Sequence record: MT446408.1
Source: Escherichia virus TH35
DNA length: 64,000 nucleotides
Direction: 5' to 3' (one strand)
Part shown: positions 2,970 to 57,027 of the stretch, in pieces
Layout of the letters: every line of letters starts with the position of its first letter
How positions within the stretch are numbered: position 1 is the first letter of the stretch
Position numbers and translations under genes: made by a program
Notes under the pieces: generated by a model
Told to the model about the DNA's origin: nothing
The model's database searches: none
The model's input: only the letters and a program-made list of their open reading frames with translations

Positions 2970-3959
2970 ATGAAACAACCTGTAATGATTATCGGCGGCG
3001 GTTTGGCAGGACTTATTACCGCGTGTCACTTCCCGAACTCCATTGTGTACGAAGCAGGGGAACGAGCGCCACAGCACAAGGCGCTGCTACGCTTTCGCGG
3101 CGAAGAAGTAAGCCGTATTACCGGAATCCCTTTTAAGGCCGTGACAGTCGATAAGGCTGTGTATTTTCGTGGTAACTACTATCACGACCACTGCCCGATT
3201 AACCTTGCCAACATGTACTCTATGAAAGTCACCAACCAGTTTGGCAGCCGCTCAATCATGAAGCTTCAAACCGCTACGCGCTACATAGCGCCGGATGACT
3301 TTTATGATCAACTTGTCGATAAGCTTGGCGACCGTATATTCTTCAATACTCCGGTCGACACCCTCTGCGGCTATAGCGAGACGCCAATCATCAATACATC
3401 GCCGCTGCCCGTCATGATGAAGCTTGCTGGCATTGATCAAAAGCTCGACTTCTCGTTTGATAAGGCAAATATACGCGTTTATCGTTTTAAGATTAAGCGC
3501 AAGTGTGAACTGTATCAAACAATTTACTTCCCTGACTATTCTGTAAGGACTTACCGCGCATCAATTACTGGTGACACGCTGATTATCGAAACAATTCCAT
3601 TGGTAAGCGTCAGCGCGGCAGCAGTTGAAGCCGCTGGCGGCATTACCCGTTATCGCGACATGAAGTTGCGTGCAGAAGTGGACGAAGTTCTGACCGCTTT
3701 TGGTCTTTCATGGAATGACATCTCTTTGGAAGAAGTTGAAAAGGTTGACCAGAAGTATGGCAAGATTGTCGACATTCCTAAAGACTTGCGCCACGCCTTA
3801 CTGCTCCAGCTGACTATGGATTTGAACGTGTTTAGTGTCGGTCGATTTGCTACATGGCGCAACATCTTGCTTGATGACGTAGCTCATGACCTTGTTGAAG
3901 TTGAAAAACTCATCAAAGCAAATAACTATCAAAAATTTGCTTATATTGCTAATAAATAA
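2970..3959 (+). CDS. FAD/NAD(P)-binding Rossmann-fold oxidoreductase
   Basis: N-terminal GxGxxG dinucleotide-binding motif VMIIGGGLAGL; start taken at second ATG (2970) for RBS spacing, track start 2964. Confidence 0.6.
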   Translation: MKQPVMIIGGGLAGLITACHFPNSIVYEAGERAPQHKALLRFRGEEVSRITGIPFKAVTVDKAVYFRGNYYHDHCPINLANMYSMKVTNQFGSRSIMKLQTATRYIAPDDFYDQLVDKLGDRIFFNTPVDTLCGYSETPIINTSPLPVMMKLAGIDQKLDFSFDKANIRVYRFKIKRKCELYQTIYFPDYSVRTYRASITGDTLIIETIPLVSVSAAAVEAAGGITRYRDMKLRAEVDEVLTAFGLSWNDISLEEVEKVDQKYGKIVDIPKDLRHALLLQLTMDLNVFSVGRFATWRNILLDDVAHDLVEVEKLIKANNYQKFAYIANK

Positions 3960-4004
3960 TTTGCTTTCTGCTTCAATGAGAGTATACTTTAATCATTGAA
4001 GCAG
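3960..4004 (+). promoter_or_regulatory. sigma70-like promoter with 12-bp inverted repeat bracketing the -10
   Basis: TTTGCT(3960-3965)-17 bp-TATACT(3983-3988); palindrome CTGCTTCAATGA 3968-3979 / TCATTGAAGCAG 3993-4004. Confidence 0.4.
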
Positions 4005-4025
4005 AACTCATAAGAGGAAATGAAG

Positions 4026-4472
4026 ATGAAACGCATCACTGGAATCGCGCTTGCCGCAACTGCTATTCTCGGAACCATGTATATGGAAGCGACTGAAGCC
4101 GCTGTCCGTACTTCCGATTCAATCGCTGTTTACGATTGCGAAGCGATGGACGGCAAGACCGCAGCGACGACTGGCGCAACAATTACCACTTACATCGGTG
4201 TGAACGAGCAAGAAGGTCTGAATATTCAGATTCAGGGATTCACCGGAAAAGGTGCCAACCGGACTCCGTGGATGCAGCGTTTCACTTTCGTTCAGCCTCG
4301 TTCAACTGGCGGCTTTATCAACCTGATTGGTGAAAACCGTTCTGGTGCAGAAATCTTTACATCAATTAGTTCTAATAATGAACCAAAGAAAAGTTTTCAG
4401 TTGCTTTATAACGCACAATTCGTTTATCATTGCACCTTCTCTGGTGATCAGCAACTAGTTAACTACCGTTAA
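4026..4472 (+). CDS. secreted/periplasmic protein of unknown function
   Basis: N-terminal signal peptide MKRITGIALAATAILG...ATEAA; AAGAGGA RBS 7 nt upstream of ATG 4026 (track start 4020). Confidence 0.6.
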   Translation: MKRITGIALAATAILGTMYMEATEAAVRTSDSIAVYDCEAMDGKTAATTGATITTYIGVNEQEGLNIQIQGFTGKGANRTPWMQRFTFVQPRSTGGFINLIGENRSGAEIFTSISSNNEPKKSFQLLYNAQFVYHCTFSGDQQLVNYR

Positions 4473-4485
4473 TAGGATAATTAAA

Positions 4486-5289
4486 ATGAAAGTTGAATTA
4501 ATTCGATACACCCAAGATGCACTTGACCTTTTGCTGGAAACAAAGAATACGCGCATGACTGGTAAGCCAGTCTCTGAGATGACAGAATCAGAGAAGCAAG
4601 AGCACTGGCGCTACATGCTTGACACCATCAAGTCACCTTTCGACTTTGTTGACTATATCTTTGACATCACTGATGTATCAAAGAATATGACTCATCAGAT
4701 GGTGCGCACACGAACAGGTGCATATCAAGAACGCACAAGCCGCGCTCAGGAGTCGTCAGCATTTGATGCGATTCGTCCTGCCAAATTTACTTACCCAGAG
4801 GATGATCCAAAGGGATGGACTCGTCATGACGAGAAGGCTGCTGAACTGGCAGAGAAATGGGATGATGCAATGGCAACCATTGACGCCCTATACCAAGAAC
4901 TTCGCGCGGCTGGCGCAGAGATTCAAGATGCACGTGCCGTGTTGCCTTCTAATATGCAAACGCATATCATGGCAAAGTTTAATTTGCGCACCCTGCAGCA
5001 AATGGCCTCTAACCGCTTGTGCACACGTACTCAAGGCGAGTATCAAGAAGTATTCCGTGCAATGGTTGCGGAAGTCCTTAAGGTGCACCCGTGGGCTAAT
5101 CCTTTACTACAGCCGCAGTGCATCGGTATGGGTAAGTGCGCATTCCCTCGTCACGGTAAGGCCCATTGCCCATGGTATCGTGATTGGATGGATACCACTG
5201 CACAGCAAGAAGAATTACGCATTCAGTTTTGGAATGCAATGCCAATCACCAATAATCCAGTGGCCAAAGATGGAGTATCAAAAGGATGA
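4486..5289 (+). CDS. thyX: flavin-dependent thymidylate synthase-like protein (ThyX family), non-canonical RTR motif
   Basis: ThyX-like blocks PFDFVDYIFDI, ARAVLPSNMQTHIMAKFNLRTLQQM and C-terminal HCPW; signature reads RTR-x7-T instead of RHR-x7-S. Confidence 0.7.
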   Translation: MKVELIRYTQDALDLLLETKNTRMTGKPVSEMTESEKQEHWRYMLDTIKSPFDFVDYIFDITDVSKNMTHQMVRTRTGAYQERTSRAQESSAFDAIRPAKFTYPEDDPKGWTRHDEKAAELAEKWDDAMATIDALYQELRAAGAEIQDARAVLPSNMQTHIMAKFNLRTLQQMASNRLCTRTQGEYQEVFRAMVAEVLKVHPWANPLLQPQCIGMGKCAFPRHGKAHCPWYRDWMDTTAQQEELRIQFWNAMPITNNPVAKDGVSKG

Positions 5290-39659: not shown

Positions 39660-39930
39660 GTGTGATACGGATGATACGGATAAAATGAGGCGTATTTTTA
39701 TCCGTATCGGTGTATAAGCCGCGCTATCACTGGTGTGCTACGGATGATACGGATGATACGGATACTTTTCATATATAAGAGTTTATAAAAAAAAATAAAA
39801 TTAAATTAGATATATAATTTTAAATTAATTTATTTGAATTCCTATAAAGTATCGCGGCAACGCGTATCATCCGTATCATCCGTAAGATTCTTTTGAAAAC
39901 AACTACTTACTTGATACGGATGATACGTCA
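39660..39930. repeat. iteron-like region: TACGGATGA/GATACGGAT 9-bp repeats in inverted clusters around an AT-rich core
   Basis: GATACGGATGATACGGAT 39664-39681; ATCCGTATC 39700-39708; (TACGGATGA)x3 39739-39766; AT-rich 39770-39850; GTATCATCCGTATCATCCGTA 39864-39884; GATACGGATGATACG 39913-39927. Confidence 0.6.
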
Positions 39931-45094: not shown

Positions 45095-46555
45095 TTAAAG
45101 GTTAGAGAAGAAGCCGGATGCTGCAACAATTGGTTTCATCAACGCCATGATTGCTGCGTCCGCTTTGTTAGGCGATTTGACTCCACGCTTTGCCATATCC
45201 TTTTTCGATTCAACTTTAAACTTACCAAGCACAGACGTGTCTTTGCGCGGCGCTGACATCTCAAAAAGAAATGTCTCAATTTCTTCCGCAGACCAAGCAG
45301 GAATCCCAAGTTCTGGAATGCCGTCTGTGTCGATGGAAATCAGCTCATCAGTCGGGTATACAGCCTGCCCTGTTGCATACTCATATGTCTTCCTGAATCG
45401 TTCGGCAATCTCAGTCCATTTTTGCGCTTTTATGTTTGCGAAATGGTCTTTATTGAGTATTTCAACGTGTGGTAACTCAAGGAAGACGTCATCAGGATCA
45501 TCAACAGCACCTTGCGCGTTGAACGCATTAAATTCGATTCTTGGGAATGTTGGATTTTCATGGATTGCATACTCATTAAGCTCATCAAATTTTGAACCAG
45601 CAAATGCACCAACACCGATGGCGTCATAGGTAATTGATGCGCCGAATGTTAATGCATCTTTCCAAACTCCGCTTGCGGACTTAAGCAATTCATCTTCCAG
45701 ACCTTCCCATGTCTTGATGCCGCGCAATACGTTGCCCGTGACAAATGCTGTGGCGTTTAAGTCGTCGCCGTCGTCTGCCACGTCAAAGCCTATACGGTTA
45801 GACCCTGACAAGCTCCATCCCAACGTAGGGTGTTTGTGGAGGTTTAGCGCGGCCTTGACGAATGCACGGTTGATGACCGACTTGTCGCCGCCTGTCTTCG
45901 GTACTCCGCCATAAACGTGTTCTGCCTTTTTCGGGTCGCGCTCATACATGCCAGCGATAACGTCCAGCATTGTTTGCGACAAGAATGGATTGTCCTGCCA
46001 GTTAATCTTCTTAACAATGGCATTTTTAGGCGGTCGCATAACAAAGTTCTGGTAGACGAAATCAGCCTCTTCATCAGGGTTAAATATGATCCATATTTCG
46101 GACCCTTCCTTACGAATTGTCGGCTCAATAATATCCCACTGCTCTTCAGTCAGCGCGTGCGCTTCTTCAAGCCAAAGAACGTCAACACCTTCTGTTGATT
46201 TGATTTCGTCAACGTTGCGTGCGATACCGTAAAATAAGAATTCAGATTTTGTTCTTTTGTGTTCAATGGAGTTCTTTAATAAGTTGAACTCATCTTTGAA
46301 ATCAGAAATTTCTATTTTGTCTTTTAATAGCGTATATACTGATTCAGAAATCTTGTTCTGGAATTGTCGAACGCAAAGGAATTTTAATTTAAAATTTGCC
46401 GCCAAATAAATAGCAAAACCAGCGGCATCATGCGATTTGGAAGATGCACGACCGCCGTATATAACTTTGTATCGCGCTTTCGTCTTCCAGACTTCTCTTA
46501 AAGCAGGATTCAACTGGTACATGACTTTCCAATTATGTGTTAATATTTTATTCAT
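45095..46555 (-). CDS. terL: terminase large subunit
   Basis: N-terminal ATPase with P-loop-like YGGRASSKS and Walker B VLWLEEAH; C-terminal nuclease-like domain; 486 aa. Confidence 0.8.
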   Translation of the reverse strand: MNKILTHNWKVMYQLNPALREVWKTKARYKVIYGGRASSKSHDAAGFAIYLAANFKLKFLCVRQFQNKISESVYTLLKDKIEISDFKDEFNLLKNSIEHKRTKSEFLFYGIARNVDEIKSTEGVDVLWLEEAHALTEEQWDIIEPTIRKEGSEIWIIFNPDEEADFVYQNFVMRPPKNAIVKKINWQDNPFLSQTMLDVIAGMYERDPKKAEHVYGGVPKTGGDKSVINRAFVKAALNLHKHPTLGWSLSGSNRIGFDVADDGDDLNATAFVTGNVLRGIKTWEGLEDELLKSASGVWKDALTFGASITYDAIGVGAFAGSKFDELNEYAIHENPTFPRIEFNAFNAQGAVDDPDDVFLELPHVEILNKDHFANIKAQKWTEIAERFRKTYEYATGQAVYPTDELISIDTDGIPELGIPAWSAEEIETFLFEMSAPRKDTSVLGKFKVESKKDMAKRGVKSPNKADAAIMALMKPIVAASGFFSNL

Positions 46556-51761: not shown

Positions 51762-52142
51762 ATGTCAAATAAGAATGATTCTATTCACAATACATATACT
51801 AAAGGCAGCGGAATGGCCTTTGGTGGCAGTATCAAAATTGACGTTCCATCTTGCGATTCTGATGGATTGGAAGTCGGCAACCGCGACTTAACATGGGTTT
51901 TACGTCGCCAATCTGATTTAGAAGAGAAGCTGGAAAATATTGAGCGTTCTCTCGAAAGTTTGCGCGATCAGCTTTTTGGTTGTTCTGAAGATGATTCACA
52001 ACCTGGACCATATGCAGCCAATCATGGTTTGATTGATAATATGCTTGCTATTACCGCTCGATCAATTGGTAAAACTGTGTCCATTGAATCATTGATCAGC
52101 CAGATTGCGGATGGCTTTGGTGATGCCCATAAGAGCGAATAG
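51762..52142 (+). CDS. hypothetical protein (126 aa)
   Basis: start at ATG 51762 after AAAGG RBS (track start 51732). Confidence 0.45.
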   Translation: MSNKNDSIHNTYTKGSGMAFGGSIKIDVPSCDSDGLEVGNRDLTWVLRRQSDLEEKLENIERSLESLRDQLFGCSEDDSQPGPYAANHGLIDNMLAITARSIGKTVSIESLISQIADGFGDAHKSE

Positions 52143-52212
52143 TGGGTGGATGTTGCTTTAACCGTGAATCGTGGGTCGCTGTGGCGGCCCTTTATTTTGC
52201 CTGCCGCGCAGG

Positions 52213-52325
52213 AGTGTACTGCAAATTTACTGTGGGCACAAAATAGTACGGTACTGTCTAGGACTTTTTCTTTGAAAAGTTAGTGGACCAAATGTGTCGT
52301 ATTTTGATTAGTGTACTGCAAATTT
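52213..52325. repeat. two copies of AGTGTACTGCAAATTT, variant of the ATAGTGCAAAT family
   Basis: identical 16-mers at 52213-52228 and 52310-52325. Confidence 0.6.
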
Positions 52326-52414
52326 CATCAAGTACCAAAACGCACCAAAAGACCCATGCCCTAAAAACCACACGAACGCAATAATCAATCGCCGTTACAG
52401 TTTCCAGCGTTACA

Positions 52415-52674
52415 ATTCGAAAGCGAATGATTCGATACACAATAATATGAAGCATAATGATTCGAAAGCGAATGATTGCGTGTAGTATAATATCGGTGGG
52501 GATTATTCTAGATGCATGTAATTTCGCATGCGTACTATTTTCGGACGAAGGGTCGGCATATTCCTCGTTTTAGTTCGGAACGAAGGGAAAGTTTTGCGCC
52601 TTTATAAAACAACGACTTACGCAACCCGCCCTAACGGTCCGATATAGGTGTCTATATAAAACAAGGACTTACGC
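52415..52674. repeat. short direct repeats in a non-coding stretch
   Basis: ATTCGAAAGCGAATGATT at 52415-52432 and 52460-52477; TATAAAACAA[C/G]GACTTACGC at 52603-52622 and 52655-52674; recurring CGAAGGG words. Confidence 0.5.
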
Positions 52675-52840
52675 GATGTTCTCCATTTAACGTAATACCC
52701 GTTATGCGAACTAAGGAGCATCTCGAAGAAGATTATGAGGCGACGAAGGGAAGGATAAAGGAGTTTTCGCGGAGAAGCGCATCGAGATAGGGACGAAGAA
52801 AAGCCGCGACTAAGCGCGGCCTATTAGTAACGGAAGGATA

Positions 52841-53131
52841 TTATAAGGAGACAATTTTAAAATAAGTTACTTCGCCGCCGAGTTGCGGTACAGCGATATA
52901 TTCGCCGCCGATTTCGGTAATCGTATAAACGAAGCCGTTAATCGTTACGCGATAGGATACGATGTCCTCGTCGCGATACTTGTAAAGGTCGAGGAAGTTG
53001 ATCGGCTCATAAATAGACTCGATAATCGCGTCGACGTTAGAGAGATAAACGCTCTCTAAGGTTTCGCCAAATACGTTAGAGTTTTCGGAAGTTTCGACGC
53101 GAGCGGAACGGATAGCGGCTAAAGTAATCAT
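52841..53131 (-). CDS. small protein, paralog family member A (96 aa)
   Basis: MITLAAIRS... similar in N-terminus and overall pattern to 53767-54051 and 53239-53541; AGGAG RBS. Confidence 0.5.
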   Translation of the reverse strand: MITLAAIRSARVETSENSNVFGETLESVYLSNVDAIIESIYEPINFLDLYKYRDEDIVSYRVTINGFVYTITEIGGEYIAVPQLGGEVTYFKIVSL

Positions 53132-53155
53132 AATAATCTCCTAGTTGGTCGGGCG

Positions 53156-53176
53156 GGTAGCGACCTATTCGCTACC
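53156..53176 (-). promoter_or_regulatory. conserved 5' UTR stem-loop (copy 1)
   Basis: on coding strand GGTAGCG-AATAGGT-CGCTACC preceded by GGGATGAG; same loop and architecture as copy at 53721-53741 with compensatory stem changes. Confidence 0.5.
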
Positions 53177-53198
53177 TCATCCCCTCTCGATATAAAAC

Positions 53199-53227
53199 AT
53201 TATAGTATTAGTGTACGAAGAAGTAAA
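53199..53227 (-). promoter_or_regulatory. sigma70-like promoter for 52841-53131
   Basis: reverse strand TTTACT (53227-53222) - 17 bp - TATAAT (53204-53199). Confidence 0.55.
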
Positions 53228-53238
53228 GCACTTTTTCG

Positions 53239-53541
53239 TTATTTTGCGATAAAATGTTTATAAGCTTTATCGCCTTCTACGTCGATATACTCGACGATAA
53301 TTAACGCTTCGTCGCGAGGCGTAACCGTCTCGATAAGGGTAACGGCTTCGTCGTCGGTCTTCGCGAAGCGGATGGCGCTACGTTCGGCGTATTTCATATC
53401 GTCGAAGGAAAGGCCGACGAAGGCGAACGCGCGGACCTTAATAGCGGTCCCGTCTAGTTCCGCGTTAACGGCTTTAAGAAGAGAAGCGACGGTTAAGCGG
53501 TCTTCGTCGTAAGTAAGGATAGAAGAGATTAAAGTGGTCAT
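53239..53541 (-). CDS. small protein, paralog family member B (100 aa)
   Basis: start set at ATG 53541 after GGGAG RBS (track start 53598 is TTG and overlaps the promoter); MTTLISSILTYDED... Confidence 0.45.
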   Translation of the reverse strand: MTTLISSILTYDEDRLTVASLLKAVNAELDGTAIKVRAFAFVGLSFDDMKYAERSAIRFAKTDDEAVTLIETVTPRDEALIIVEYIDVEGDKAYKHFIAK

Positions 53542-53597
53542 AATAAAACTCCCGATGCTAGTAGAAGGAAGGGCCATCGCCCGTCTCGATATAAACA

Positions 53598-53625
53598 AGT
53601 ATACGCGAGTGTACGAAGAAGTAAA
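53598..53625 (-). promoter_or_regulatory. sigma70-like promoter for 53239-53541
   Basis: reverse strand TTTACT (53625-53620) - 16 bp - TATACT (53603-53598); near-identical to promoter at 53199-53227. Confidence 0.5.
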
Positions 53626-53679
53626 GAAAAAAGATAAAATAATTTATCTCATTTTTATCGAAAAAGTGCTTTACTTTTT

Positions 53680-53707
53680 TCTACACTATATTATAATGTA
53701 CTCATAT
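53680..53707 (+). promoter_or_regulatory. sigma70-like promoter for 53767-54051
   Basis: TTTACT (53680-53685) - 16 bp - TATAAT (53702-53707); shares CTTTACTT...TACAC core with the two reverse promoters. Confidence 0.55.
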
Positions 53708-53710
53708 CGG

Positions 53711-53748
53711 GACGGGATGAGTTAACGAATAGGTCGTTAACGCCCGTC
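53711..53748 (+). promoter_or_regulatory. conserved 5' UTR stem-loop (copy 2)
   Basis: GACGGGATGAG-GTTAACG-AATAGGT-CGTTAAC-GCCCGTC immediately upstream of AGGAG RBS. Confidence 0.5.
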
Positions 53749-53766
53749 GAGAACTAGGAGTTTAAA

Positions 53767-54051
53767 ATGGCTATTCTTAACGTTTCTTCCATCCGTAACG
53801 CTATCGTCGAGAACTACGGCGTAAAACAAATTTTATCCGAAGTCTACGCCGCGAACGTAGACCAAACTATCGAGGCAGGTGGGGTAACGGTCGCCGAGGC
53901 TTTTAAACTTTACGCGGCGCTACCGGAATCGGACCGCGAAGCCTTCGAAGTAAACGTTAACGGATACTTCTTCGAAGCGGTCGAAATCGGTAACACCTTA
54001 CTCGTTATGGGCGAAGAAGAATTTGAGACCTTCTCCCTCGTCGAAGCGTAA
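53767..54051 (+). CDS. small protein, paralog family member C (94 aa)
   Basis: MAILNVSSIRNAIVE...; paralogous to 52841-53131 (shared NVD..IE, VNG.F, EIG, E.E.TF positions). Confidence 0.5.
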   Translation: MAILNVSSIRNAIVENYGVKQILSEVYAANVDQTIEAGGVTVAEAFKLYAALPESDREAFEVNVNGYFFEAVEIGNTLLVMGEEEFETFSLVEA

Positions 54052-54131
54052 GAGAGGATTTTTAGAGCGTCGTGCGCGACGCTTTAATAAAATTCTTTCG
54101 CGCCTAGCGCCCTAACAAATAGGAGTTTATT

Positions 54132-54758
54132 ATGGTTAGCTTAAATCGTTTCTCGACTAGCGGCGACGTTATCGCAACTAAGACCGCCGACCTCGTTGCA
54201 TTTTATAATGCAAATTCCGGTTCGAAGCCGATTAAGAAATTTTCGGACCGCCGGACCGCCGAGGCTCGCGTAATAGCGTTAATCGAGTCCTTAAACGCGC
54301 TCGATGAGCCGTCCAACGAATCGCCCATCCCAGACGCGAAGTCGCGCGAGGAAGTGCCCAGCGATGTAAAAACGCATAAGGCGCGTGCGGTCGTTAAAAA
54401 GTCCGAGCCGACCCAGGAAGAACTCGACGCGATGACCGACGAAGAGTATGAAGCCTTCGTTAAGAGCGGTTTAAACGATAGTGCAAATTGCGTAGTGCAA
54501 AATGGAACTCCTTCCCATCGCCGTTCAAATAGCGAAGGTATTGCGAAAAGTTGGGATAACAAGGAAGTGGCGCAAAAGCGTCTCACGCGTAACGGCGTTA
54601 TGGTCGAGGGTGTAGGCGAGTTCAAATCGGTCCGCGTAGCGTTTGCTGCGCTGGGCTTACCGGATAGCAAGCACATTCGCTTCCGCATGAAGCTTAAAGA
54701 AGCTGGACGATTGAACTTTGAGTTCGGCAACAAGTCCTACACCTTCCAGATCATCTAA
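54132..54758 (+). CDS. hypothetical protein (208 aa)
   Basis: ORF with AGGAG RBS; hairpin at 54064-54081 upstream; contains first ATAGTGCAAAT copies. Confidence 0.5.
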   Translation: MVSLNRFSTSGDVIATKTADLVAFYNANSGSKPIKKFSDRRTAEARVIALIESLNALDEPSNESPIPDAKSREEVPSDVKTHKARAVVKKSEPTQEELDAMTDEEYEAFVKSGLNDSANCVVQNGTPSHRRSNSEGIAKSWDNKEVAQKRLTRNGVMVEGVGEFKSVRVAFAALGLPDSKHIRFRMKLKEAGRLNFEFGNKSYTFQII

Positions 54759-54808
54759 TCGAATGGCGGCCCTTCGGGGTCGCTTTTCATAGTGCAAATT
54801 GGTGGCTT

Positions 54809-55072
54809 ATGAATACGCTTATTCTTATCGCTACGTTGTCCATCGGAAGTGGTCGCACCTTATCCCTTTATGATCATAGTGCAAATTGCGCTTACCCAAC
54901 GCGCGTTGCGGTGATAGTTAATAGTGCAAATCGAATGCTATTCGAGACTTGTTGGCGGGTCGATAACGAGAAAGGTCGGGTAGTCTTAGGTTATAGTGCA
55001 AATCTGCTGGTGGAGTCGTTCGATTGGACGGTTGAAGGCCGTAAATTGTTACGGAAAGTGACTAAAAGATGA
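54809..55072 (+). CDS. doubtful ORF spanning three in-phase repeat copies
   Basis: 87-aa ORF whose HSANCA, NSANRM and YSANLL segments are each encoded by an ATAGTGCAAAT copy; may be non-coding. Confidence 0.3.
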   Translation: MNTLILIATLSIGSGRTLSLYDHSANCAYPTRVAVIVNSANRMLFETCWRVDNEKGRVVLGYSANLLVESFDWTVEGRKLLRKVTKR

Positions 55073-55133
55073 CTTATAATAATACACTTTCTAACGCGTT
55101 TATGGTTGTAACCTTCCCCGTCGTATTACCGAT

Positions 55134-55173
55134 GGCCCTAGAAGTGGAGAAAATGTGTTCTAGGGCCGTTTTA
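55134..55173 (+). terminator. rho-independent terminator for the forward unit
   Basis: GGCCCTAGA (55134-55142) / TCTAGGGCC (55159-55167) 9-bp stem followed by GTTTTA. Confidence 0.5.
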
Positions 55174-55186
55174 TAGTGCAAATTGG

Positions 55187-55675
55187 CTAGTGGCGGGAGA
55201 ATTGCTCACCTTCTTTGGCCGCCTCTCCAAAATCCTTGTAGAAATCGTCCATAGAACGGCCCATTTTACTATTGCCGTTTTCATCAATCATCGTGATGCC
55301 GTAGATGATATTCAGTTCACGAATAGCATTAAGCTTGGCTGATGCCGCGACTTCTGGATCACGCACAAGCTTGACCAAATTGTGAATTGCACCTTTTACG
55401 CTCCACAAATCCTTTAGCGGCATTTCTTCCATACGCTTTTTGAAGCGCATTTTGTAGTACGGATTGCGTTGTGCGCAAAGGATTCGCTGGCCAGTGTAGT
55501 TATCCGTTGCAACTTCCATTCCAAATACTAGTGCAAAAGCTGCGCGCATGTCATGGCCCTGAATAACAAGGTCAATGAACTCATCGAATAAGGCCTGATT
55601 GTGCTCTGCAAATCGCGGGTCTTCAAAGTCTTCAGGCATCGCTACATAGTCTTGACTCATAGTGCAAAATCCCAT
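55187..55675 (-). CDS. hypothetical protein (162 aa)
   Basis: ORF; start codon region itself formed by two ATAGTGCAAA copies (reverse strand ATGGGATTTTGCACTATG). Confidence 0.5.
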   Translation of the reverse strand: MGFCTMSQDYVAMPEDFEDPRFAEHNQALFDEFIDLVIQGHDMRAAFALVFGMEVATDNYTGQRILCAQRNPYYKMRFKKRMEEMPLKDLWSVKGAIHNLVKLVRDPEVAASAKLNAIRELNIIYGITMIDENGNSKMGRSMDDFYKDFGEAAKEGEQFSRH

Positions 55676-55889
55676 AGTGCAAATTAATAGTGTGAATTAT
55701 ACAATGGATGAACATTATATTCAAGTGCAGATTGATGTTCATTATGGCTATAAACGTACACAAATCATATTGCGGAATGAATAGCGGACCGTGGTGCGTG
55801 GTGTACTGTTTGATACGTATAAAAGAAATCCATCCCTTTCGCCGCTTGTTATGCAAATCAATGACTTAGCCGCTGCTGGCTGGTTTAAG

Positions 55890-56230
55890 CGTATCATGAC
55901 GTATCATCCGTATTGCCGCAAGTCTTTGTTTTTACTTATATCTTACGGATAATACGTATAAATATAAGTTTAGTATAAGTATGAGGATATGAAAAAAATT
56001 AATTTAAATGTTTTTAAAATGGAGTTTATTTATTTTTGGAGTTTTATATATAACGATGCCCAGTTTTATCCGTATCATCCGTAAGATTAATGTACAAGCC
56101 AGGCGCGGCAAGGGCTGTACACTGATACGGATAAAAAAACATGACGTATCATGACGTAAGGGTGTACCACTTTGGAAAAGAGGAATCCAGGAACGGTGCG
56201 GCCTGCAGCCATGATACGCTTAAATTTTAG
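55890..56230. repeat. second iteron-like region, related to 39660-39930
   Basis: GTATCATGACGTATCATCCGTAT 55891-55913; AT-rich core 55960-56060; TTTTATCCGTATCATCCGTAAGATT 56064-56088 shares 21-mer ATCCGTATCATCCGTAAGATT with 39864-39890; GATACGGAT 56124-56132. Confidence 0.6.
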
Positions 56231-56490
56231 CCGTATTTTAGGCGTATCAAATGTGTGCAAACAACACGTTTCACGACACTAAAATTTCAATCCATAGATA
56301 ATTCCTAACAAACACCACGGACCAATAGACACGATCTATGAAATATATTTCTAAATATTTCCGCACAATTAATAAATAAAACACAACCTCATAATTATTC
56401 CATCGCAAAACACGACCCAAACGACAAAAGGCCGCATAAAGCGACCCATTGCACACATTCCATTCTTCAAAACACACAAATCAATGTTCT

Positions 56491-57027
56491 TTATCCGCTG
56501 ACCTTCCAGTCACCATTCCTTTTATCACGCTTCTTTAACTCCGTTTTAATGACATTATTATCCACAATAACTCCTAAACGGCGCAATTCACACATGACCT
56601 TGTGGCGATATTGTCGAAGCTTTTTGACGTCCATTGTGCTCCTTGAATAAGATAGTACCATAAAAATAATATCATCATTCATTTTGTAACGCATACAAGT
56701 TTTATAATGCCTTTTGAAAATTGCATTTACGGCATCTGTTTTCAGCAATTCATCCATTAATTCTGGATTCCCTTCACAGACGTTAATGACCCATTCATCC
56801 CTTGATTTTGCCGCTTTCAATCCCCTTAGAGTTAATAACTCATATAATGCCTTTCTGCACTTAGAGCAATCACCAATTGTCAAACTTGATTCCATTTCTT
56901 GAGCATCGGTCAACTCTGTATTGCCTTTGTTGAATTTACCGCACAAGCTGATTTGCTCGCCGTTGTCAAAGTAGTGGGCAAGTTTTGAGTATCGCGGCTT
57001 GCCCCATCCTGCAACGTTACCCATCAC
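56491..57027 (-). CDS. hypothetical Cys-rich protein (178 aa)
   Basis: ORF with paired-Cys motifs CGKFNKG...CSKCRK. Confidence 0.5.
   Translation of the reverse strand: MMGNVAGWGKPRYSKLAHYFDNGEQISLCGKFNKGNTELTDAQEMESSLTIGDCSKCRKALYELLTLRGLKAAKSRDEWVINVCEGNPELMDELLKTDAVNAIFKRHYKTCMRYKMNDDIIFMVLSYSRSTMDVKKLRQYRHKVMCELRRLGVIVDNNVIKTELKKRDKRNGDWKVSG

Follow-up and report, generated by a model that had tools for sequence, protein, structure and literature searches.

Which function is served by a short word that is repeated in one orientation around the gene of a small terminase? The question arises from the 64,000-nt stretch of DNA analysed here (the window), which belongs to a Wifcevirus, an E. 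coli myovirus, and which carries such an array in a form that is previously undescribed. DNA reading by small terminases is acknowledged as an open problem, with neither the wrapping nor the threading model explaining specificity (PMC9611059). For the E217-type small terminase (TerS) a decameric structure has been solved and no DNA target is known; the array represents a concrete and conserved candidate target, unique within the 64 kb, in a close structural relative of the E217 TerS. The question furthermore bears on how kilobase-long exact terminal repeats obtain both of their boundaries, a process which is poorly understood outside T7. The reading favoured here is that the array constitutes a cosB- or pac-like terminase recognition signal for fixed-end packaging with a direct terminal repeat (DTR), and it is put forward tentatively, its probability being judged somewhat short of an even chance.

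The repeat array

The array reported in the preliminary description was confirmed, with ATAGTGCAAAT and its close variants being present in 10-11 copies at 54478-55697, all on the + strand (Table 1). Exact copies of ATAGTGCAAAT number seven (54478, 54789, 54876, 54921, 54993, 55173 and 55674), copies with one mismatch locate to 55659 and 54205, the latter being weak and poorly conserved, and more divergent variants were identified at 54492, 55528 and 55687. At one mismatch or less nine matches compare with 1.94 expected, and none of 100 shuffles reached nine. The 9-mer TAGTGCAAA occurs ten times on the + strand and not once on the - strand, all copies lying inside 54479-55675; an exhaustive search of both strands of the 64-kb window, beyond which about 4 kb of the genome lie, retrieved none outside this interval and hence no similar density elsewhere, which had been named as the finding that would speak against the array. 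Successive copies are spaced by 14, 297, 87, 45, 72, 180, 355, 131, 15 and 13 bp, and their distance from the left physical end ranges from 323 to 1532 bp. A search of 52000-56600 against Rfam gave no match at E<=0.1.

It had further been described that copies are spaced by multiples of three. The arithmetic is correct, as seven copies share one phase, three of them being held to it by the S-A-N frame of a single ORF, but a phase lock as a feature in itself could not be upheld: one frame of the word contains TAG, which is forbidden inside any + strand ORF, and the last pair of copies is 14 bp apart in most relatives versus 15 bp in the window, so that the property is not conserved. The phase lock is hence attributed mostly to coding constraint and for the other part to coincidence.

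Table 1. Coordinates of the array copies and of the associated features in the window
Feature	Position	Strand	Remarks
Direct terminal repeat (DTR), one collapsed copy	52267..56020	.	3.75 kb; left physical end 56020/56021
Boundary variants	52213..52325	+	AGTGTACTGCAAATTT at 52213 and 52310; degenerate ATAGTACGG at 52243; oriented like the array
208-aa gene	54132..54758	+	uncharacterised two-domain phage family, widespread; candidate alternative motif reader
Two adjacent copies	54478..54502	+	ATAGTGCAAAT (54478) and GTAGTGCAAAA (54492), 14 bp apart
Exact copy	54789..54799	+	intergenic, between 208-aa gene terminator and 87-aa gene start
87-aa gene	54809..55072	+	convergent with terS; hosts three copies; hydrophobic N-terminus
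Exact copy	54876..54886	+	in 87-aa gene, H-S-A-N; orthologous copy retained in L019
Exact copy	54921..54931	+	in 87-aa gene, N-S-A-N
Exact copy	54993..55003	+	in 87-aa gene, Y-S-A-N; Chi site begins 2 nt after
Chi site GCTGGTGG	55006..55013	+	only E. coli Chi in the 64-kb window
Exact copy	55173..55183	+	4 nt past terS stop codon; adjoins bidirectional terminator hairpin
terS, small terminase subunit, 157 aa	55187..55660	-	PDB 7uxe, E=7.3e-34, residues 3-147
Variant CTAGTGCAAAA	55528..55538	+	within terS; minus-strand codons A-F-A-L-V; also in L019
Three tandem copies	55659..55697	+	at 55659, 55674 and 55687; period 13-15 bp
Sigma-70-like terS promoter candidates	55696..55741	-	TTGAAT-17-TATAAT; TGAACA-16-TATAAT

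Conservation and turnover in relatives

A co-oriented array with turnover of its sites was found in four metagenomic lineages, L019, L020, L021 and L022, with TerS identities of 68, 51, 47 and 54%, respectively. Around terS of these lineages the core G(C/T)ACTA(T/C), which usually stands within ATTTGCACTAT, occurs 8-12 times in sense and 0-1 times in antisense orientation, 0.04-0.17 being expected. L019 possesses orthologues of six of the nine window copies together with a triple tandem like that of the window (period 12-13 bp), while in L020 and L022 the copies are found at other places, non-coding DNA included; in L019, L020 and L022 one copy stands immediately behind TATAAT. More distant relatives lack the array, namely Pbunavirus 14-1, Xylella MATE2, Serratia Hera and Aeromonas Gekk3-15, although terS, synteny and replication genes are common to them. 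Chance matches dominated a scan of the entire collection for pairs of the 9-mer, in which no Wifcevirus-type array came to light on a satellite or hijacker; one of its matches, L066 (Xanthomonas pisi), is plain Wifcevirus DNA.

Within the genus, 4 of 72 motif columns are variable versus 105 of 869 in the flanks (p=0.06), a comparison of little statistical power given the 92-95% identity of the genomes, and some genomes have lost individual copies. The copy at 54789 is unchanged in 11 genomes and has an orthologue in L019. That at 54921 is the same as in L019 at 11 of 11 positions, synonymous ones included, and shows single substitutions in Mansfield and RCIP0319, and that at 54993 carries an A-to-G substitution in four genomes and is missing from L019. 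As for the protein side, the putative recognition helix of the TerS helix-turn-helix (HTH) reads RAAFALVF in the window and ADCMRLTF in P0004, though the DNA word is the same. A motif that stays constant while the helix varies says nothing about TerS as the direct reader, or speaks mildly against it.

terS and the neighbouring genes

The minus-strand gene that is bracketed by the array is firmly identified as terS by its match to PDB 7uxe, the E217 small terminase; the Mansfield annotation likewise names it terminase small subunit, and it belongs to phrog_4783. Adjacent copies do lie at its start region, as had been described for a gene at 55187-55675, but the start itself was placed too far upstream: most likely the gene begins at the second ATG (55660), since relatives are annotated in this way and since the upstream ATG is out of frame where the spacing equals 14 bp. 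Copies thus locate to the promoter and the start of terS, to the inside of the gene and to the position just past its stop. The triple tandem reaches from the terS start codon, which falls inside its first copy, to the -10 hexamer of the promoter-like site, and this first copy (55659) is a perfect 11-mer in most relatives. Conservation of the copy at 55528 may partly be owed to the protein sequence.

The ORF at 54809-55072 had been regarded as doubtful, but it turned out to be a real conserved gene with 56% (L019) and 34% (L021) identity and with invariant Cys and Trp residues. Three copies lie in frame as S-A-N within it, as had been reported, and N-S-A is invariant across this 87-aa protein family; L020 has no equivalent ORF, and the copies there are in non-coding DNA. 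From these in-frame peptides it might be assumed that the repeats are devoid of a DNA-level function and represent a by-product of peptide motifs or of duplication history, all the more as S-A-N recurs in the translation of several copies and the copy within terS coincides with conserved codons. However, copies match at synonymous positions too, they are also found in non-coding DNA (54789, 55173 and most of those in L020 and L022), antisense to terS and in two frames, their flanks are without similarity, and the shuffled sequences never reached the observed count. This explanation was already disfavoured and is considered extremely improbable. A protein-repeat origin of the DNA repeats was rejected.

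The pair at 54478/54492 sits in a variable linker of the 208-aa gene, where it is read in two frames (D-S-A-N-C-V-V-Q-N). It is dispensable or lineage-specific, as it is absent from the linker alleles of ECML-117, Eco4M-7 and RCIP0319. The 208-aa protein belongs to a family with 833 cluster representatives, Pbunavirus included, and has no Pfam or PDB family, the DTR proteins overall being without a Pfam family. Its single-sequence model was useless (pLDDT 39), whereas the alignment-based model was confident (pLDDT 85.7) and ends in a helix-helix-hairpin; fold searches against PDB and viral structures returned non-significant matches, mostly to winged-helix and SAP-like nucleic-acid binders. 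The C-terminal domain is near-invariant in the motif-bearing lineages, and several of its basic and polar residues differ in Pbunavirus.

These properties make the conserved protein of about 200 aa encoded in the DTR a candidate for a phage regulator other than TerS, for which the array would serve as an operator array that times terS and switches the early genes of the DTR. In the window as in L019, L020 and L022 a copy stands immediately downstream of the -10 hexamer, where transcription of terS is predicted to start, other copies lie in or between convergent early genes, and the near-invariance of the C-terminal domain goes along with the presence of the motif, its basic and polar residues being altered in Pbunavirus; the confident model with its terminal helix-helix-hairpin and the mostly winged-helix or SAP-like character of its matches point in the same direction. 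On the other hand, these fold matches remain under significance and come with no Pfam or PDB family, and the protein is widespread, also among the motif-less Pbunavirus. Operators moreover normally cluster at promoters and do not usually extend over 1.2 kb of coding DNA, and such a role would leave the inner-boundary variants unexplained. Taken together, an operator function is regarded as unlikely.

The terminal repeat, its ends and the boundary variants

The window holds the DTR in one collapsed copy, while the record of WFC has both copies, which comprise 3784 bp and are 100% identical. For Mansfield, PhageTerm yielded a DTR of 3673 bp (PMC6753283), and the repeat of WFC and WFH was given as ~3.7 kb (PMC6563267). 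The inner boundary is accordingly placed at 52266/52267 (WFC record) or at 52347/52348 (PhageTerm call for Mansfield). The main array falls inside the DTR, 0.32-1.5 kb from its left end. The AGTGTACTGCAAATTT variants that had been noticed at 52213 and 52310 do exist and are conserved; they agree with the array word AATTTGCACTAT in 10 of 12 positions and flank the inner DTR boundary, each within 60 bp. As a DTR terminase must also act at the inner boundary, these variants count for the packaging reading.

An 80-bp stretch of 14% GC lies ~280 bp from the nearest array copy. The AT-rich element which holds the cut, together with its flanking repeats, has a twin at 39.66-39.93 kb that is without an array, and comparable AT-rich elements are present in 14-1 and Hera, which lack the array. 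The AT-rich element is hence not unique, so that something else must single out the copy at 56 kb, and beside that copy no unique feature other than the array is present.

An AT-rich region at a genome end with repeats beside it might also represent a replication origin, the copies being iterons bound by an initiator. Like iterons, the copies are direct repeats of one orientation, partly in coding DNA and 280 bp away from a spacer of 14% GC. A further parallel comes from five unrelated contigs (L183, L168, L221, L108 and L197), in which genuine iterons of 22-23 bp with the core TTTGCACTACC lie inside DnaD-like replisome-organiser genes (HTH_36 and Phg_2220_C) that adjoin a loader of the IstB/DnaC type, and in which the iterons translate as the same peptides, GVVQN / GSAN. 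The likeness extends to the core, TTTGCACTACC being nearly the same as ATTTGCACTAT/C, to the direct orientation, to the location in coding DNA and to VVQN / GSAN, but this resemblance is strongly selection-biased, because the contigs were found by searching for the same word. The organiser iterons moreover follow a regular period of 22-23 bp inside the initiator gene by the helicase loader, whereas the spacing in the window is irregular, with 13-355 bp in place of the ~22 bp, or more generally the ~17-23 bp, of iterons, and no organiser homologue or other such initiator was detectable in the window. The array is also missing from Pbunavirus and other relatives that possess the replication genes and the AT-rich element, and the boundary variants find no explanation. 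An origin is thus held to be unlikely too.

The sole Chi site of the window stands 2 nt from an array copy on the same strand, is oriented such that it is active for RecBCD entering from the left physical end, and is kept in all 8 Wifcevirus loci that were examined. L020 and L022 carry five Chi sites each, co-oriented and interleaved with the array over ~1-2 kb (~0.1 expected); Hera has four Chi sites around terS and no array, and L019 a full array and zero Chi. The array could therefore be conceived as a strand-specific recombination or end-protection element of the terminal repeat that acts with Chi, e.g., in concatemer formation via the DTR, and its strict single-strand orientation, which is like that of Chi, the adjacent RecBCD-active site in the window and the interleaved sites of L020 and L022, with those around terS in Hera, are in line with it. 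The word is, however, read by no known enzyme, array and Chi occur without each other in L019 and Hera, and their co-location may just reflect that end-proximal functions share limited space; such an element is considered very improbable.

Promoters, host factors and gene shuffling

Promoters of single-subunit RNA polymerases, of which the reverse complement of the word had seemed loosely reminiscent, were dismissed: no RNA polymerase was identified among the ORFs of at least 450 aa, and the motif is limited to one 1.2-kb stretch. Sigma-70 promoters were likewise rejected, since ATAGT could be a -10 element but the copies are without a properly spaced -35 and a promoter scan picked none of them; the early promoters of the DTR form a separate repeat family, TTTACT-N16/17-TATAAT. 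Sigma-54 sites and T4 MotA boxes were rejected after inspection of the flanks by eye, which showed neither a GG at -24 nor a correctly spaced -10. We know of no host-factor site (DnaA, IHF, Fis, OxyR, marbox, H-NS, Ter and dif being considered) that fits the conserved 11-mer. Repeats that shuffle genes in the manner of the T4 PeSL had also been proposed, but the mosaic breakpoints among ten Wifcevirus genomes do not coincide with array copies: the divergent blocks span 52.40-52.50, 52.82-53.04, 53.33-53.49, 53.72-54.15 and 54.45-54.52 kb, and the core-array stretch (54.53-56.02 kb) is collinear in all ten.

A proposed model for fixed-end packaging

Among the roles listed in the preliminary description, packaging-type protein-binding sites are thus favoured, with terS, the DTR, uniqueness, orientation and turnover speaking for them, whereas promoters and gene shuffling did not stand. 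The sequences show the position, uniqueness and orientation of the array, its conservation in spite of site turnover, which gene is terS and where the DTR boundaries lie; from these we infer both the binder of the sites and that its binding directs packaging. Recognition sites of pac and cos type are typically located in or beside terS, as in P22, SPP1 and lambda (PMC9611059). The array is unique in the 64-kb window, lies next to and overlaps the small-terminase gene and adjoins a physical end, its distance to the left cut exceeding that of model systems. The suggested mechanism assumes that a ring-shaped TerS, alone or with a partner, would bind the co-oriented ATTTGCACTAT sites from its own promoter and start codon on over ~1.2 kb, by which a directional nucleoprotein complex would be built at one place of the genome only. 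This complex would then place the large terminase to cut the AT-rich spacer ~320-340 bp upstream, thereby generating the left end, while the weaker copies near the inner DTR boundary, two or three in number, may mark where the terminal-repeat cycle makes its second cut. Occupation of the triple tandem over the transcription and translation start of terS would in addition render terS self-limiting.

Pbunaviruses were reported as headful packagers with permuted genomes and without defined termini, the reports on their termini being in conflict (PMC12390725). Wifcevirus has both the array and a DTR, whereas Pbunavirus, reported as headful, lacks the array; given that the relatives without it share the replication genes, its presence seems to track fixed-end packaging and not the replication module, as far as can be judged from genome comparison. 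Several points count against the packaging reading. The putative HTH helix of TerS differs markedly among lineages with the same word, and for the E217 TerS, the closest solved homologue, no detectable or specific DNA binding was found in vitro (PMC9611059), which likewise counts against it. With ~320 bp to the cut, a span of 1.2 kb and irregular spacings of 13-355 bp, the array far exceeds lambda cosB and SPP1 pac in size and is much less compact, its motif columns vary only modestly less than the flanks within the genus, and copies are lost in places.

A more far-reaching version of the packaging reading, which is regarded as somewhat unlikely, assumes that the array converted an ancestral, sequence-indifferent headful packager of Pbunavirus type into a fixed-end packager with long repeats, whereby dispersed sites in one orientation, some ten in number and one for each subunit of the decameric TerS ring, would load the terminase directionally and, with the weaker copies at the far boundary, would define both edges of the 3.75-kb repeat. 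If true, this would constitute a new packaging-signal architecture and the first specific DNA substrate for an E217-type small terminase. Isolates that infect K-12 are on hand (BASEL Bas98-101; PMC11990801), and a synthetic rebooting system exists for vB_Eco4M-7 (PMC11074155). A packaging signal would be useful for the engineering of fast-replicating therapeutic and diagnostic phages and for judging the risk of transduction.

Comparison with known packaging systems

In lambda, the cosB sites are bound by the small terminase and give specificity and direction to the cut. Like the array, cosB (gpNu1 sites R1-R3, with cosN and the Nu1 gene) consists of short repeated sites on the side that is packaged first, ahead of and extending into the small-terminase gene (PMC9611059). 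The lambda sites are three within ~120 bp and begin ~50 bp from the nick, whereas here 10-11 copies extend over 1.2 kb at ~320 bp from the end; the lambda ends are cohesive with 12 nt, in contrast to the 3.75-kb direct repeat, and the array copies are putative binding sites. SPP1 pacL and pacR, together with the pac sites inside terS of P22 and Sf6, resemble the array in that they flank or overlap the terS promoter and 5' part with several contact points on either side (PMC9611059). Unlike the array, however, these sites do not consist of ten repeats of an 11-bp word, SPP1, P22 and Sf6 initiate their headful series imprecisely, and SPP1 is cut between pacL and pacR, a layout different from that found here. 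In P1, seven hexamers (TGATCA/G) jointly serve as the pac signal; they form two clusters within pacA, occupy 162 bp flanking the cut and are regulated by Dam methylation. The P1 site shares with the array the many copies of a short oriented word in the region of a terminase gene, but differs from it in that the array motif is without GATC sites. For T7, the SRL and SRR repeats of Dunn and Studier are irregular arrays of a short oriented word beside the boundaries of the terminal repeat, for which a part in concatemer processing has long been suspected. The role of these T7 repeats is unproven too, and they lie outside the 160-bp terminal repeat, whereas the main array described here resides inside the 3.75-kb repeat and wraps terS.

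An oriented array inside the terminal repeat

The DNA was identified as that of a Wifcevirus, an E. coli/Shigella myovirus with 28 related records, of which HansTraber_Bas100 is the nearest (94.7% identity), and the Mansfield and WFC records revealed that the entire island of the preliminary description is the direct terminal repeat (DTR). For Mansfield a DTR of 3,673 bp was predicted by PhageTerm (PMC6753283), and the WFC record holds both DTR copies, which comprise 3,784 bp and are 100% identical to each other (PMC6563267). The two agree on 56020/56021 as the left physical end, but the inner boundary locates to 52266/52267 by WFC and to 52347/52348 by Mansfield; as these boundaries, 81 bp apart, straddle the motif variant at 52310, the right-hand cut can be given only approximately. 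In ECML-117 and one IMG/VR genome, divergence starts a few bases outside the left end (56026-56076), hence the DTR end coincides with a mosaic boundary. Bas100 diverges at the tandem units just within the inner boundary, and in the metagenomic lineage L021 a related GAATCATT repeat cluster (3398-3590) occupies the corresponding end.

The array lies 323-1532 bp from the left end and consists of copies of the 11-mer ATAGTGCAAAT, which reads ATTTGCACTAT in terS-sense orientation. At up to one mismatch nine copies, seven of them exact, were observed against 1.94 expected, a number reached by none of 100 dinucleotide-preserving shuffles. The 9-mer TAGTGCAAA occurs ten times within 54479-55675, exclusively on the + strand, and is absent elsewhere from both strands of the 64-kb window, while 10 of the 14 + strand copies of the core [AG]TAGT[AG]C fall into 54400-55700, where 0.28 are expected. 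The single orientation reported initially was thereby upheld, and the coordinates, including those of two AGTGTACTGCAAATTT variants at 52213 and 52310, were found to be right. These variants agree with the extended word AATTTGCACTAT at 10 of 12 positions and, together with a third degenerate copy at 52243, lie no more than 60 bp from the inner DTR boundary, oriented like the array, where these weaker relatives would mark the other edge of the repeat.

The gene bracketed by the array encodes the small terminase, as nearly the full length of its product matches the TerS decamer of Pseudomonas phage E217 (PDB 7uxe, E=7.3e-34) and the same gene is annotated TerS in Mansfield; most Wifcevirus records list merely a hypothetical protein. 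Translation almost certainly begins at the second ATG (55660), given that 157 aa are annotated in relatives, in most of which a 14-bp last spacing puts the upstream ATG out of frame. Lying within the terminal repeat and surrounded by early-type genes, terS is present in two copies per virion DNA; ~9 kb and the genome end separate it from terL.

Features of the array and its surroundings (window positions)
Feature	Position	Strand or order	Remark
Near-twin of the cut element	39660-39930		TGATACGGAT repeats, AT-rich spacer, CGTATCATCCGTATCATCCGTAAGAT
terL	45095-46555	-	
Mosaic blocks, ten genomes	52.4, 52.8-53.0, 53.3-53.5, 53.7-54.15, 54.45-54.52 kb		
Tandem TTCGAAAGCGAATGATT(C/G) units	52410-52500		with promoter-like hexamers, just within inner DTR boundary
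TTTACT-N16/17-TATAAT repeat	53199-53227, 53598-53625, 53670-53697	-, -, +	strong, sigma-70-like; shared flanks
Motif copy	54205	+	one mismatch
Two copies in 208-aa gene linker	54478, 54492	+	exact; weaker variant
Copy between 208-aa gene terminator and 87-aa gene start	54789	+	exact
Three copies within convergent 87-aa gene	54876, 54921, 54993	+	exact
Chi, GCTGGTGG	55006-55013	+	2 nt after copy 54993
Copy 4 nt past terS stop	55173	+	exact; adjoins bidirectional terminator
terS	55187-55660	-	
Variant within terS	55538-55528	terS-sense order	weaker variant
Three tandem copies, period 13-15 bp	55697-55659	terS-sense order	55687 weaker, 55674 exact, 55659 one mismatch; last one holds terS start codon
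Sigma-70-like promoter TTGAAT-17-TATAAT	55724..55696	terS sense	directly before triple tandem
TGATACG(G/T/C)(A/T)TAAA-type sites	55811-56250	both	seven sites
33-nt inverted repeat	55930-55962 / 56065-56097		flanks spacer at 56020/56021

Spacing, coding context and promoters

The codon-phase-locked spacing noted at first holds true insofar as seven copies share one phase, but it is not a property of its own. One motif frame contains TAG and is hence barred within a + strand ORF. Within the 87-aa gene all three copies are read as S-A-N, which by itself makes the distances between them divisible by 3. The 208-aa gene reads its two neighbouring copies in different frames, the only two that are allowed (D-S-A-N-C-V-V-Q-N), and at terS the spacing of 15 bp becomes 14 bp in Mansfield, Bas100, ECML-117, RCIP0319, CWP003 and two IMG/VR genomes. 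What phase agreement is left, that of 54789 and 55173, amounts to coincidence (roughly 1 in 9, judged post hoc). A by-product of repeated peptides was rejected, as some copies lie in non-coding DNA, others are read in either of two frames or run antisense to terS, and copies are the same at synonymous sites. The 87-aa ORF (54809-55072, + strand), previously considered doubtful, is a genuine gene with homologues in L019 (56% identical) and L021 (34%); the family possesses invariant Cys, Trp and Gly residues (among them Cys27, Cys48 and Trp49) and a hydrophobic N-terminus, and the 87-aa product is probably a small early protein that is secreted or sits in a membrane.

Promoter function was considered in two forms. 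Sigma-70 promoters were rejected, since the early promoters of the DTR are the distinct TTTACT-N16/17-TATAAT repeat, which presumably drives divergent small genes in mid-DTR as immediate-early promoters. Promoters for a single-subunit RNA polymerase, loosely considered in the preliminary description, were rejected as well: no such polymerase is among the ORFs of at least 450 aa (Pol III alpha, SNF2 helicase, portal, TerL and structural proteins), and confinement of the motif to 1.2 kb is unlike a general promoter. No match to a known RNA was found for the array region. The proposal of gene-shuffling repeats was likewise abandoned, as the mosaic blocks among ten genomes lie outside the core array region, which is collinear.

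Conservation of the array

Within Wifcevirus the copies are conserved in position, yet those at 54921 and 54993 are substituted in some genomes and the two linker copies are missing where the linker allele differs. Variable columns in the core region amount to 4 of 72 in the motif versus 105 of 869 elsewhere (about half the rate, p=0.06), a weak test as the genomes are very similar. The strong evidence for conservation comes from deeper relatives, which were reached via TerS and their contigs then inspected. At up to one mismatch L019 (TerS 68% identical) carries 7 copies versus 0.17 expected, L020 (51%) 8 versus 0.08 and L021 (47%) 2, next to ~11 of the degenerate core G(C/T)ACTA(T/C), of which L022 (54%) has 9. 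All four arrays follow the terS-sense strand (8-12 sense versus 0-1 antisense copies) and are limited to a zone from ~150 bp upstream to ~1 kb downstream of terS, with de novo motif enrichment in relatives reaching p=1e-13 to 1e-17. Of nine window copies, L019 retains six in orthologous positions, among them the triple tandem where terS begins, against a background identity of ~60%. In L020 and L022, which have no counterpart of the 87-aa gene at this position, most copies lie in non-coding DNA, so the array has outlasted the turnover of its individual sites.

Pbunavirus 14-1, Xylella MATE2, Serratia Hera and Aeromonas Gekk3-15 share terS, the 208-aa homologue and the order primase/helicase, gap, terS, convergent small genes; they hold 0-1 copies and no alternative array. 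Directly 3' of terS, Hera carries three AAAAAATAAGCATGCTTTGTA copies (4523-4646; 62 and 41 bp apart) with Chi sites between, which may be a lineage-specific counterpart. An 811-bp contig assigned to Xanthomonas pisi DSM 18956 (NZ_JPLE01000260.1) is Wifcevirus DNA that spans the array and the start of terS, suggesting that the Xanthomonas assembly is contaminated.

Functional readings

As best fit, the array was tentatively read as cis-acting sites recognised by the terminase for DTR packaging with fixed ends, an assignment derived from sequence and held at somewhat short of even confidence. It is suggested by the position beside the genome end and overlapping terS, as is common for cos and pac recognition sites (PMC9611059), by uniqueness in the genome and directionality, and by the copies at the second DTR boundary. 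A further argument is the contrast between Wifceviruses, with array and fixed ends, and Pbunaviruses, which have homologous TerS and replication genes, no array, and were reported as headful packagers whose permuted genomes lack termini (PMC12390725); for E217 TerS, specific binding to DNA was not observed (PMC9611059). Among array bearers, the pairing of fixed ends and array is known from Wifcevirus. As caveats, the TerS HTH helix varies among lineages having the same word, and classical terminase sites are far smaller and tighter than this array.

The cut lies in an AT-rich spacer of ~100 bp (14% GC) with inverted TGATACG(G/T)ATAAA-type repeats on either side. A near-twin, possibly an origin or regulatory element, lies between two minus-strand structural genes, and analogous elements precede terS in L019-L022, 14-1 and Hera, the AT-rich minimum lying 312-337 bp upstream of terS in all array-bearing lineages. 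As the cut element is not unique, another feature must mark the 56-kb copy as terminus; the array is the only unique feature adjoining it and would single it out.

Alternatively, the array may comprise operators for a protein other than TerS, consistent with the motif copy that four lineages carry where terS transcription is predicted to start. The 208-aa protein is a candidate: its alignment-based AlphaFold model is confident (pLDDT 85.7) and includes a C-terminal helix-helix-hairpin that is invariant among motif-bearing lineages, but searches of PDB and viral folds gave no significant match. Encoded at 54132-54758 on the + strand, it is a member of a large family of uncharacterised phage proteins (833 representatives at 50% clustering; 35% identity to Pbunavirus 14-1 ORF77) in which a variable linker joins conserved N- and C-terminal domains.

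Origin iterons were considered because five contigs (L183 7456-7546, L168 3457-3524, L221, L108 and L197; unrelated, viral and genomic), found by scanning for 9-mer pairs with mostly chance hits, contain true 22-23-bp iterons with the core TTTGCACTACC that translate to the same VVQN/GSAN peptides. They reside in DnaD-like replisome-organiser genes (HTH_36 + Phg_2220_C) upstream of an IstB/DnaC-like loader, and as their period is not a multiple of 3, GVVQN and GSAN(K) peptides alternate. The window, however, yielded no organiser homologue, the array spacing is irregular, and across relatives the array does not track the replication module.

A Chi-linked role in recombination or in protecting the DNA ends was also weighed, as the sole Chi of the window, 2 nt from a motif copy and kept in 8 of 8 Wifcevirus loci checked, has the orientation that would stop RecBCD coming in from the left physical end, and L020 (323-1294) and L022 (411-1836) each interleave five co-oriented Chi with the array over 1-2 kb around terS (~0.1 expected). 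Against this, L019 has the array and no Chi, whereas Hera has four Chi (3737-4833) and no array.

Searchable literature makes no mention of word or array, and Wifcevirus papers do not discuss packaging signals. If the putative function as a terminase-recognition-type repeat array is assumed, its dispersed architecture inside a long terminal repeat would be unusual.
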